Source of the DNA: an uncultured bacterium | Lineage (GTDB): Bacteria > Fidelibacterota > Marinisomatia > Marinisomatales > TCS56 | DNA: 64,000 nt | NCBI GenBank assembly: GCA_964628055.1 | Contig: CAZVNL010000001.1 | Location: 4,114-68,113 of the forward strand | Direction of reading: 5' to 3' | Position numbers and translations under genes: made by a program | The notes under the pieces: generated by a model | Databases searched by the model: none | The model's input: only the letters and a program-made list of their open reading frames with translations | What the model was told of the DNA's origin: nothing | Part shown: positions 1-5,613 of the stretch, in pieces | How the letters are laid out: the number at the start of each line of letters is the position of its first letter | Numbering within the stretch: the stretch's first letter is position 1

Positions 1-263
1 AATAAGGCATCGCCAGCATCTAAAATCAAAGGATCGACTCCCGCTTCGCGAACTTCCTTAATATAGGTGGCTTTTCTGGGCAGACCGCCCAGGGGATTTC
101 GCTTTCACCCACAGGGGTCGATCTGTCCCCGGACGTTGGCCGTCACTAAAAAGATGACTTGGCCTTTTCCCTGCTTTGATTGGGCACAGGCATTGACTGT
201 TACCAGCAATCCCAACATGAAGAATATATTAACCAGAATAAATAGGATTCCCTTCGTCTTCAT
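1..263 (-). CDS. N-terminal part of a secreted lipoprotein, 5'-nucleotidase/metallophosphoesterase-like, interrupted by an in-frame TGA (possible selenocysteine) at 105-107; runs off the window edge
   Basis: Absent from the ORF track because TGA splits it. ATG at 263. MKTKGILFILVNIFFMLGLLVTVNAC is a signal peptide with a lipobox-like Cys. The frame reads ...FLVTANVRGQIDPCG-TGA-KRNPLGGLPRKATYIKEVREAGVDPLILDAGDAL and stays open to nt 1. The post-TGA peptide has the GGLxRxAT...LDAGD pattern typical of UshA-type metallophosphoesterase N-termini. Confidence 0.45.
76..107 (-). promoter_or_regulatory. Candidate bacterial SECIS element (UGA plus downstream hairpin)
   Basis: On the minus strand: UGA (107-105), 18 nt, then loop GGUCU (86-82). 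The loop is closed by a perfect 6-bp stem CUGGGC (92-87) / GCCCAG (81-76). Confidence 0.4.
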
Positions 264-291: not shown

Positions 292-621
292 TTAACCACC
301 GCTTATTTTCACATTATATTTTTTTGAAGCCAAAAGGTTCAGTACTTTTTTACGTTGGTCGCCCTGAATAAGAATTTCGCCACCTTTTACCGAGCCCCCC
401 ACCCCACAATGAACCTTTAACATCTTACCCAAGGCTTTCAAGTCGGCGTCTTTCCCCTGGAACCCCCGCACAACCGTTACTACTTTTCCGCCACCTTTCC
501 GCTCTAACCACACACGCAACTGTTGTTGCTCAGGTGGAGGTGTCGGTTCTTCATCGGTCCTTTTTTCAAGTAATCGGGTGTCGGTGGAGTACACTAAGGT
601 TGTTCGTTCTTCTGGTTTCAT
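292..621 (-). CDS. yciH: Translation initiation factor SUI1/YciH family protein
   Basis: 109 aa. LVYSTD... at the N-terminus and a C-terminal SUI1 fold signature (KGGGKVVTVVRGF...LKxxCGVGGSVKGGEILIQGDQRKKVLNLL...V) collinear with E. coli YciH. Confidence 0.9.
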   Translation of the reverse strand: MKPEERTTLVYSTDTRLLEKRTDEEPTPPPEQQQLRVWLERKGGGKVVTVVRGFQGKDADLKALGKMLKVHCGVGGSVKGGEILIQGDQRKKVLNLLASKKYNVKISGG

Positions 622-2571: not shown

Positions 2572-4365
2572 CTATTTCATCAAGACCACTTTCCGAACCT
2601 GCCATTGAGTAGCGGTGGACAACCGAATTAAATACACTCCAGCAGCCACTTCCTGGTCCTCATCATTGCGGCCGTCCCACCGTAGCGTGTTATTCCCGTG
2701 AACGGATTTACTTGTTAAAATGGTCCTCACCTGAACCCCCGTAAGGTCGTAAATCACTAAAGAGATCCTCGTGGGAACAGCCGTATAAAAACGAATAGTC
2801 GTCCCGCTGTTGAATGGATTAGGGTAGGCCTCATGCAATTTAATTCGTGTGGGTAGATCAGATTTCTCTCGATCAATAGAAACAGAATGAACGGCTGATA
2901 GATCAACAACTCGCGGCAAGTGGTCAGAAGCGAGGTTTGTGTCTTCCGCTTCCAAGTTCAGGTTTTGTAGCTCGGCTACTGGCAATGCCAGGGTATTTAG
3001 AACGAAATGATTGCCCAACTCCAGTATGCTGTTGCTGTAGAGGATGTAGTCTAATTTCCCCGGACTGAAAGAACTGCCATCATTCCGCCAGGTGTACCCC
3101 ATGCGAAGGTGAGTGTGGCGTGAAAAGAGATCCGCAAGGGGCGTCTCATCCCAGTCCCAGAAGAAATCTGCACCATACTGACTTTCATTTACAATATCAC
3201 CGGCGGTAAGGGTAATGAGTTGTTGACGCTCCCCCACAAGGTTAAAATCACCCACATGGACGATGGGGGTTTCGTTAGGCAGGGAAAAAGGCCCCACGCC
3301 ATTCACACGCCAATCGCGCATTATGGCTGTTAACTGATCGGCATCCTCTTGACGGCTGGCATCGTTTTGACAGCAGGCCAGATGGGAATTAAAGACTAAC
3401 AATGGTGCGCTTAAACGATCTCCCGTATTCAGTAGAACAACCATCGTCCGCTCGGAAGCGGTGAGGACCGCCTCCTGCAAAATAGGGAACCGGGAAATGA
3501 CAAAATTTCCGTGATAAAGACCGCTAATATACCAGGTAACCCCTGGAAACCAGCTCTGGAAAAGACTGGCTACGGGAGCCGTGTCAGCATAGTGTTCCTG
3601 GACAGCAACGACGTCCGGATCGATGGCCGTCAGAATTCGTTGAAATCGGTCCTGGCGTGTCGAATCTAATAGTCCACCATACAGCGTGTTATAGGTAACT
3701 AATCGCAAGTGTTGGGTGTTGAAACGCGTAAGGGGAATTGGGTCGGGTGGTGGCACTGGCGTTTGGTCTCGAATAAAAGTTACTGTTTCCCCGGGAGCGG
3801 GAAGGCCGTCACCACCAGTAACCGTCTCCTGCCAGTAGAGTTGAATGGTATCGGCCACGCTATTACCATAGGCCAGATTCAGGCTGATCTCAAAAGCCGT
3901 ACTCGTAATGGTGGGAGCCATACGCAGTGTAATGTCATTTTGCCCAATGGATTGAGAACCGCTGGTTGCGTACCATGTTCCGCTTCGGCAACCAAAGCAC
4001 CATTCAAAATCCACACCCATTCCTTGGAGGGCTATGCCGGTCGTACTGTTATTGTCTACGTCAATGTACAACCGTAGGTCGTTGTTGTTCTGTAAGAGAT
4101 GTTCCCCATCTTCGAAAGTTAGATAAAGGAGCAACGTCGTCCCGTCGTTGGTCACCTTCAGGATTCCGAAATCAGCCTGGTTGCCGTCCCCCGTGGCATC
4201 GGTATAAGCTATGGGAACGCTCTCCCAGTCATCAAACAGACCATCGATGGTAATAGGAACAGCAGCAAAAAGTATGACCTGGGATAGAAACAAGATCATT
4301 TTCAGAATCAAATTGTTGGTAATAGCGGGAGCATGAACGGAACGGTCTTGAGGATGTTGTTTCAT
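2572..4365 (-). CDS. Secreted endonuclease/exonuclease/phosphatase (EEP) family protein with T9SS-type C-terminal sorting domain
   Basis: 597 aa. EEP motifs are present (VVAVQEH, GDFN, ASDHLP). The C-terminal ~80 aa (YPNPFNSGTTIRF...AGVYLIRL...KVVLMK) matches the Por/T9SS secretion-tail pattern. The true start may be the internal MILFLSQVILFAAVP signal peptide. Confidence 0.8.
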   Translation of the reverse strand: MKQHPQDRSVHAPAITNNLILKMILFLSQVILFAAVPITIDGLFDDWESVPIAYTDATGDGNQADFGILKVTNDGTTLLLYLTFEDGEHLLQNNNDLRLYIDVDNNSTTGIALQGMGVDFEWCFGCRSGTWYATSGSQSIGQNDITLRMAPTITSTAFEISLNLAYGNSVADTIQLYWQETVTGGDGLPAPGETVTFIRDQTPVPPPDPIPLTRFNTQHLRLVTYNTLYGGLLDSTRQDRFQRILTAIDPDVVAVQEHYADTAPVASLFQSWFPGVTWYISGLYHGNFVISRFPILQEAVLTASERTMVVLLNTGDRLSAPLLVFNSHLACCQNDASRQEDADQLTAIMRDWRVNGVGPFSLPNETPIVHVGDFNLVGERQQLITLTAGDIVNESQYGADFFWDWDETPLADLFSRHTHLRMGYTWRNDGSSFSPGKLDYILYSNSILELGNHFVLNTLALPVAELQNLNLEAEDTNLASDHLPRVVDLSAVHSVSIDREKSDLPTRIKLHEAYPNPFNSGTTIRFYTAVPTRISLVIYDLTGVQVRTILTSKSVHGNNTLRWDGRNDEDQEVAAGVYLIRLSTATQWQVRKVVLMK

Positions 4366-4477: not shown

Positions 4478-5050
4478 TCAGGGAGTGGTAAAGGGAACAT
4501 GTCCCTTGTATTCCCACGTTTTCAGGTCCGCTGACACATAGTAGCTTCCGCTGGCCGTGAGAGCCAGGAAATACTGTTTGGTCCCATCCATGGGCGGAAG
4601 AATGGTGAGGGAGACAAAATCATCCCGATCGTCAATCTTGGATAGAAAAACAAAAGAGTTGCCGATTTTAACAGGGGTTATGTTCCGTAATTGGTAAATG
4701 TTACCCCGATTAGAGAGCGCGACGATTCCCAAAACCAGCGGGGCAATACCAAAATTATAGTATGTAGAACTAACGATTCTTTCCTCCGGTGCTTTGGCTG
4801 CTTTATTCAACTGGTCAGAATATTTCTGTAATTCCTGGATTTGCGTTTCTAACTGCTGGATTAATTCGGGAGGTACAGATTCACCCGGTGTCCCAGGCGG
4901 CCCTTGTGGCCCCGGCGGTCCGGGTTCCCCTTTCGCTCCAGGAGGTCCCTGAGGGCCAGGCTCTCCCTGGGGTCCTGGCGGTCCTGGAATGGCCTGTTGC
5001 GTACAGCTCACCAGCCAAAGGAATGAGAGGAGAATAGCTAACGTTTTCAT
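4478..5050 (-). CDS. Collagen-like triple-helix repeat lipoprotein with coiled-coil and C-terminal globular domain
   Basis: 190 aa. Signal plus lipobox (LWLVSC), 12 uninterrupted G-X-Y triplets, then a heptad-like [22 protein letters not shown] segment and a ~110-aa beta-rich tail. Its start overlaps the upstream gene's stop (ATGA). Confidence 0.8.
4877..4984 (-). repeat. Collagen G-X-Y codon repeat (12 triplets)
   Basis: [36 protein letters not shown], read directly from the translation. Confidence 0.95.
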
Positions 5051-5613
5051 TGAGTCGCAGGAAAGAGGTACGGCATAGCCCGCGCCCAGGCCATTGACAT
5101 GATGATAAATAATTCGGAGATAATGGCTGCTGCAAAAAAGAGAATAGAACGCTTCAAAGCCCGATTTTTATAGGCGTTTATTTTACCCAGCGCAAACACC
5201 TGTTTGGCGAACATGTTATATACTTGGGTGCTGTCGGTAGAAATTTTCTGGAGGTGTTGTGCATACTCTTCCGGAGACTTGAATTGGCTTATACCACCGA
5301 AAAAGGTGGGATTCACCACTTTTTTACCATCGGGTATACTATCATCTCGAACACGGGGTATAATGACCATTAAAAGGTGAATAATGGCCAGGAGTGCTGA
5401 AAAGAAATAAATAATCACCATGATGAGTTTGAACCAGTCTAATTGTACCCGTAAAAAATGGACAATAAAGAAAACCATGAACACACCTAAAATTGAAAGC
5501 AGCGTGAAGGCTTTTTGATCAGATCGTTGGATGATCTGCTGTTCACTGGTAAGAACCCGGAACAGGGGTGAAAAATCTTTACTCGTATCAGGATTGGGTT
5601 TTTTCTCGGTCAT
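5047..5613 (-). CDS. Three-TM membrane protein, resembles DUF5706/PycTM-type (Pycsar effector TM) domain, stand-alone
   Basis: 188 aa. An SDQKAF motif precedes two adjacent TM helices, followed by a soluble helical segment and a C-terminal TM. The topology and the (A/S)DxKA motif recall PF18967 from memory only. No cNMP-binding or cyclase gene is nearby. Confidence 0.4.

Follow-up and report, generated by a model that had tools for sequence, protein, structure and literature searches.

A reading frame at the very edge of the 64,000-nt window (the whole stretch of DNA analysed here) is broken by a TGA and then continues, which raises the question of whether this TGA ends a short lipopeptide gene or is decoded as selenocysteine (Sec) within a longer protein. 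The frame opens on the minus strand with an ATG at 263 and translates into a hydrophobic N-terminus, MKTKGILFILVNIFFMLGLLVTVNAC..., with Cys26 at its end. The residues leading to this Cys read ...LLVTVNA-C26, where the Asn at −2 is atypical, and a Cys after a hydrophobic N-terminus recurs in full-length homologues. Codon 53, directly after Cys51-Gly52, is a TGA, past which the frame remains open for 34 further codons to position 1 (...IDPCG*KRNPLGGLPRKATYIKEVREAGVDPLILDAGDAL). Reading of the minus strand thus agrees with the initial annotation as to the start codon, the position of the TGA and the open frame beyond it.

The window holds only the 5′ part of the gene. On the 211,820-bp parent contig (L001; ENA ERZ4201062 NODE_1), the read-through open reading frame (ORF) is 403 codons long and contains a single TGA. 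Five independent contigs (ENA, Logan and JGI), the parent contig among them, already have its 52-aa N-terminal ORF called as a protein (P0001). A relative in which the N-terminal peptide is 77% identical and the C-terminal part about 86% identical is represented by three further contigs, each with the TGA at the corresponding codon, and the sequence 3′ of the TGA is conserved in it. The features of the locus are listed in Table 1.

Table 1. Features of the locus, in window coordinates unless a contig is given; the Sec assignment of codon 53, and with it the name selenoprotein, is very probable.
Feature	Position	Strand	Basis
5′ part of UshA-like selenoprotein gene, codons 1–87 of 403	1..263	−	Translation; NF041198 match
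Remaining codons of UshA-like selenoprotein gene, outside the window	L001:10264-11212		Parent contig
Predicted signal peptide and lipobox Cys26 (codon 186–188), predicted lipoprotein anchor	186..263	−	Read from sequence
Cys51-Gly52-Sec53 site, UGA at 105–107	105..113	−	TGA in 62/62 Sec forms; Cys in four homologues
SECIS apical hairpin: stem 87–92 with 76–81, loop GGUCU 82–86	76..92	−	Alignment; RNAalifold
Degenerate metallophosphoesterase motif I, T-A-N-V-R-G versus T-N-D-x-H-G	126..143	−	Family alignment
Retained metallophosphoesterase motif II, D82-A-G-D85	9..20	−	Family alignment

Conservation across the TGA

A homologue scan with one genome per GTDB species yielded 76 loci, mostly from metagenome-assembled genomes (MAGs) of Marinimicrobia (also known as Neomarinimicrobiota or Fidelibacterota), with a few from Desulfobacterota, Myxococcota and Anaerolineae. 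One orthologue (L079) lies on the complete Fidelibacterota chromosome OZ252221.1. In approximately 60 loci, each from the representative genome of a different species, the codon at the aligned position is TGA, flanked as in D-P-C-G-*-K-x-N-P-L-G-G-L. It is TGC in three loci (L078 and L081, from Vulgatibacter, and L084) and TGT in a further, metagenomic Cys homologue (P0118/L089). The Cys-Gly preceding the UGA is invariant among 62 aligned Sec forms. Neither TGG nor any other sense codon except those for Cys occurs at the column in the 76 loci and L089, and no homologue terminates there. The column is one of Cys or Sec, as a selenoprotein reading had anticipated.

Were the TGA a true stop, the locus would hold a gene for a 52-residue lipopeptide and, after it, either a second gene or what is left of a pseudogene; the hairpin downstream of the TGA would then be a by-product of the codons for the conserved Gly-Gly-Leu-Pro-Arg. 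Gene callers do break the locus in this manner, into a 52-aa ORF and a 312–325-aa ORF; the majority of database homologues are shortened calls that begin 3′ of the TGA, and a protein search with the 87-aa fragment matched only two 52-aa truncated calls. However, amino-acid conservation spans the TGA in approximately 60 species at roughly 40% identity, and these species have no conserved start codon 3′ of it. The downstream part alone would be without a signal peptide, and the Cys homologues are single ORFs with no interruption.

A covarying hairpin follows the UGA

The hairpin (CUGGGC/GGUCU/GCCCAG; Table 1) has the form first described from the sequence, with a GGUCU loop that begins 18 nt past the UGA on a 6-bp stem. 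By itself it folds at −11.5 kcal/mol. The stability of the surrounding 63-nt region does not exceed that of shuffled sequence (z = −0.45), so the significance of the hairpin rests on comparison with the 60-odd homologues. It also overlaps the conserved Gly-Gly-Leu codons, which confirms the early caveat that GGU CUG encodes a conserved Gly-Leu; both of these points favour a true stop. Rfam at the gathering threshold gave no match to a SECIS family in the window, a search that is uninformative for short bacterial SECIS elements.

An alignment of 62 distinct Sec-form sequences, reaching from 12 nt on the 5′ side of the UGA to 60 nt on its 3′ side, shows the hairpin in every one of them; 96.8% of the cells in the 6-bp helix are paired, compared with 27–54% when the 3′ arm is slid by 1–3 columns. 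The helix beats all 500 column shuffles in both pairing and covariation score, and the same helix was predicted independently by RNAalifold. Pair 30–42, which links the third position of a Leu/Ile/Met codon to that of a Pro/Ser codon, is GC in 36 sequences, AU in 16, GU in 6, UA in 3 and UG in 1, and is never unpaired. The loop and its closing pair, GGC GGT CTG, are identical in every Sec form (62/62), synonymous positions included; the Gly codon immediately 5′ of the UGA varies freely (GGA, GGC or GGG). In the Cys forms, Gly-Gly-Leu is encoded by GGC GGC CTC, GGC GGG CTC or GGA GGT TTA, and by GGC GGT CTG in L078 only. Read base by base, the Cys form L089 has unpaired arms and no hairpin.

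These codons are therefore fixed in all Sec forms and found in only one of four Cys forms, which indicates that the constraint applies only where the UGA is recoded. Because synonymous sites are frozen and third positions covary, protein coding alone is an insufficient explanation of the hairpin. A division into two separate genes, or into a gene and a pseudogene, is contradicted by the conservation across the TGA and by the covariation, and we reject it; that the TGA is a true stop is highly improbable.

The standard genetic code applies

A still smaller probability attaches to an alternative genetic code in which TGA encodes Trp (code 4) or Gly (code 25), an idea that draws on full-length database homologues in which the column reads Trp (DPCGWK). 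When these proteins were mapped onto 97–99% identical DNA, the codon under the Trp was TGA, meaning that they had been translated with code 4, with which their contigs were called. The Trp is apparently a systematic annotation artefact of a gene caller switched to code 4. Proteins P0007–P0030 (for example, P0008, P0021, P0022 and P0026) are calls of this kind from short metagenome contigs, with Trp in place of Sec. The only sense codons at the column are those for Cys, with no TGG or Gly codon among them. Moreover, of the 44 window ORFs that are 200 aa or longer, 19 end in TGA, which shows that the standard code is in use. When the window was scanned for other ORFs linked in pairs through one TGA, only adjacent same-frame genes came up, hence no other convincing read-through pair and no second selenoprotein candidate.

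That the TGA is a misread or misassembled TGC or TGT in an ordinary Cys-Gly-Cys protein, a reading for which the existence of Cys forms in the family could speak and which the initial annotation had kept in view as a base-calling error, has a negligible probability and is ruled out by the recurrence of the same TGA in five independent assemblies, on three contigs of the close relative and in approximately 50 further species.

With the homologue codons, the conserved and covarying hairpin and the repeated assemblies all supporting the selenocysteine reading first put forward for this TGA, we consider it very likely that codon 53 is a genuine Sec codon in a predicted lipoprotein of the UshA-like CxU family.

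Proposed decoding and the Sec machinery

The record for Escherichia coli K-12 fdhF reads TGA CAC GGC CCA TCG GTT GCA GGT CTG CAC. The offset of the fdhF loop given in the initial annotation proved to be correct: in both genes the UGA is followed by 18 nt and then by GGUCUGC, in the identical codon register. Given equal spacing and register, G23 and U24 in the loop (numbering begins at the U of UGA) coincide with those of fdhF. In the fdhF SECIS, G23, U24 and the bulged U17 are the SelB determinants, of which positions 23 and 24 are SelB contacts. The two elements differ in that position 17 of the fdhF SECIS is a bulged U and its GGUC loop is closed by an A-U pair, whereas the element in the window is a perfect 6-bp helix capped by the 5-nt loop GGUCU and lacks both a bulged U17 and a conserved lower stem. 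The SECIS is of the textbook fdhF type and leaves knowledge of Sec decoding unchanged.

We propose that the UGA at codon 53 would be read as Sec in the 403-codon gene of a predicted periplasmic lipoprotein, producing Cys51-Gly52-Sec53, and that recoding would be directed by this in-gene bacterial SECIS, with its 6-bp stem and its GGUCU loop 18 nt past the UGA. SelB-GTP with Sec-tRNA(Sec) would presumably bind the loop at G23 and U24 and bring Sec to the ribosome at the UGA. When selenium is absent, translation would end after 52 residues.

Searches by tblastn with E. coli SelA, SelB and SelD covered the window, 10 kb on either side of it and the remaining fetched loci and found no selA, selB or selD, and ARAGORN found no tRNA-Sec in the window or any fetched locus; the initial remark that the window shows no sel genes was accurate. 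The one tRNA in the window is a tRNA-Ala according to ARAGORN, and Rfam likewise gives one tRNA. An ‘orphan SelD’ has been described in three SAR406 single-cell genomes (PMC5029168), and nothing beyond that report was found in the literature on the Sec trait in Marinimicrobia, SAR406 or Marinisomatota. The conserved in-frame TGA and covarying SECIS in approximately 60 species are strong indirect evidence that these lineages decode Sec.

Family assignment and fold

The best family match of the protein is NCBIfam NF041198, ‘UshA-like (seleno)protein, PCGU’ (model UshA_like_PCGU), with an E value of 1.3e-18 for the 87-aa fragment and of 1.5e-64 for the full protein (218.5 bits, profile positions 2–393 of 519). 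The curated cutoff of the model is 275 bits, above the score of the window protein. Marinimicrobia relatives score 197–202 bits and Desulfobacterota members 288–425 bits; NF041198 misses the Marinimicrobia clade because its members score under the cutoff. No Pfam domain was found in either the fragment or the full protein.

Current annotation of the gene in this lineage and in approximately 50 related genomes either divides it between a 52-aa ORF and a truncated ‘hypothetical protein’ or, under code 4, renders the Sec codon as Trp. Lowering the NF041198 cutoff, or building a model for the sub-family, would recover this selenoprotein, which is widespread in the major ocean phylum Marinimicrobia.

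The family profile matches the N-terminal metallophosphoesterase domain of E. coli UshA and of other 5′-nucleotidases in the PDB, and the window protein itself gives weak profile matches to SoxB and UshA. Modelled with AlphaFold (pLDDT 88, pTM 0.86), the full-length homologue P0008 has 5′-nucleotidases as its top Foldseek matches. The Cys-Gly-Sec segment is the sole internal low-confidence stretch of this model and forms a loop directly after strand 1, where the motif I metal ligands are usually placed. Sequence matches to UshA and 5′-nucleotidase chains end at about profile position 230, and after residue 279 the P0008 model consists of long helices and a small sheet.

The substitution of TANVRG for motif I, noticed at the outset, is present in the sequence and the family alignment alike (Table 1); the classical relatives L082 and L083 read LHTTDLHG there. 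In motif II, D82, A83 and G84 are invariant and D85 is near-invariant across the family alignment. Motif III is GGFD in place of GNHE, and the region of the motif V GHxH reads TSRST. As most of the metal ligands have been lost and a nucleotide-binding C-terminal domain is lacking, the protein is, to judge from these motifs, probably not an active phosphoesterase.

Gene neighbourhood

At its stop codon the selenoprotein gene shares 1 nt with the start of a rhodanese gene, which in turn overlaps a MauE/DoxX gene by 4 nt. Approximately 55 loci preserve the gene order SUI1, selenoprotein, rhodanese, MauE/DoxX. A Y-C-x4-C-G motif is present in the rhodanese at all of 61 loci, and a C-G-C motif in the MauE/DoxX protein at all of 60. 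The selenoprotein gene is probably co-translated with the membrane-anchored rhodanese and MauE/DoxX. Distant Sec and Cys forms have a TPR/CpoB-like neighbour and no rhodanese, from which it follows that the operon link is clade-specific and not family-wide.

The rhodanese and MauE/DoxX genes lie just past window position 1 (L001:11212-12149), and the rhodanese weakly matches the ‘rhodanese_LYCAU (seleno)protein’ model. On the other side, a SUI1/YciH gene (window 292–621, minus strand) ends 28 nt upstream of the selenoprotein start, an adjacency found in approximately 50 loci. In the distant forms, the gene directly upstream encodes a TPR_6/TolA-binding (CpoB/YbgF-like) protein (L077:963-2177, L078:2086-2898 and L072:1091-2881).

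Further genes were observed in the surroundings. On the minus strand of the window, positions 5047–5613 encode a protein of 188 aa that contains PycTM (PF18967), a transmembrane domain familiar from the anti-phage effectors of Pycsar systems; the gene after it (4478–5050) encodes a 190-aa protein with a weak collagen-repeat match. A 597-aa secreted protein of the Exo_endo_phos (endonuclease/exonuclease/phosphatase) type (2572–4365, minus strand) carries a C-terminal FlgD_ig/Por_Secre_tail sorting domain, from which a type IX secretion system and a host of the FCB group can be deduced. About 6 kb past the window start, a 2,844-aa protein with faint Big-domain matches extends over L001:16174-20159 and beyond.

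Possible function

The lost ligands, the Cys-Gly-Sec loop, the haem fusion of distant members (see below) and the Cys-rich partners together point to a role in redox chemistry or sulfur transfer rather than in hydrolysis. The active site would probably be the Cys-Gly-Sec loop, which would switch between selenol/thiol and selenenylsulfide states. Together with the rhodanese (C-x4-C) and the MauE/DoxX protein (C-G-C), the selenoprotein could form a periplasmic thiol/selenol relay that acts on sulfane sulfur or disulfides. We offer this redox-relay function tentatively, as a possibility of somewhat less than even chance. More doubtful is the idea that the short Marinimicrobia form, instead of being a mere truncation, serves as the selenol component of an undescribed three-protein periplasmic redox module. 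Such a module would handle sulfane sulfur, polysulfide or disulfides in abundant ocean bacteria and would replace the haem-fused version of Desulfobacterota. The rhodanese–MauE/DoxX operon and the distant haem-domain fusion offer a testable lead towards periplasmic sulfur/thiol redox chemistry.

Comparison with known systems

Selenoproteins of this kind are already known, the UshA-like CxU family having been published in 2008. Zhang and Gladyshev (2008, PMC2398784) entered it as ‘COG0737, UshA-like’, with the motif CxU, in their list of 20 major selenoprotein families from Global Ocean Sampling data; they counted 76 Sec sequences, spread over 20 samples, alongside 92 Cys homologues, and gave the family neither a function nor an operon context. 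Reviews from 2022 and 2026 list it as a known prokaryotic selenoprotein family (PMC9312934; PMC13188914), and the later one ties it to NF041198 (PMC13188914). None of these three papers (PMC2398784, PMC9312934 and PMC13188914) cites selenium-incorporation data (75Se or mass spectrometry) for the family. The window protein has in common with the Global Ocean Sampling family its marine origin, COG0737 homology, the CxU motif and the occurrence of Sec and Cys forms, a likeness set by description that does not imply sameness with the short Marinimicrobia-type clade.

With NF041198 the protein shares the P-C-G-U motif (D-P-C-G-U-K here), the alternation of Sec and Cys, a 5′-nucleotidase-type N-terminal fold and degenerate metal motifs. 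The canonical members L075 (425 bits) and L072 (392 bits) have a C-terminal domain with four CxxCH haem motifs, whereas the 403-aa window protein contains no CxxCH and departs from the full-length architecture of the model. These haem-fused members (L075:1475-3022 and L072:2878-4722) come from Desulfobacterales and an unclassified MAG, and their C-terminal extension is lacking in all Marinimicrobia forms. Gene context differs as well, with a TPR/CpoB-like neighbour in canonical NF041198 loci and the rhodanese and MauE/DoxX operon here. What is new is modest: a short, haem-less Marinimicrobia form that falls below the NCBIfam cutoff, is mis-annotated and lies in a rhodanese and MauE/DoxX operon.

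Compared with UshA, 5′-nucleotidases and SoxB, the protein retains the fold of the N-terminal domain and the GD of motif II. It differs from them in having NVR for DxH, GGFD for GNHE and TSRST for GHxH, and in the inserted Cys-Gly-Sec loop. It is also shorter than UshA (403 versus 550 aa) and has no C-terminal nucleotide-binding domain.

Two further systems offer functional analogies only. Thioredoxin reductase ends in Gly-Cys-Sec-Gly and, with no sequence homology to the protein described here, resembles it in having Cys and Sec so near each other that they could join in a selenenylsulfide. In Mycobacterium tuberculosis, DoxX, the rhodanese SseA and SodA form a membrane complex, which is alike in its pairing of a DoxX-family membrane protein with a rhodanese. 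Unlike thioredoxin reductase and the DoxX–SseA–SodA complex, the relay proposed here would be periplasmic and anchored by a lipoprotein.
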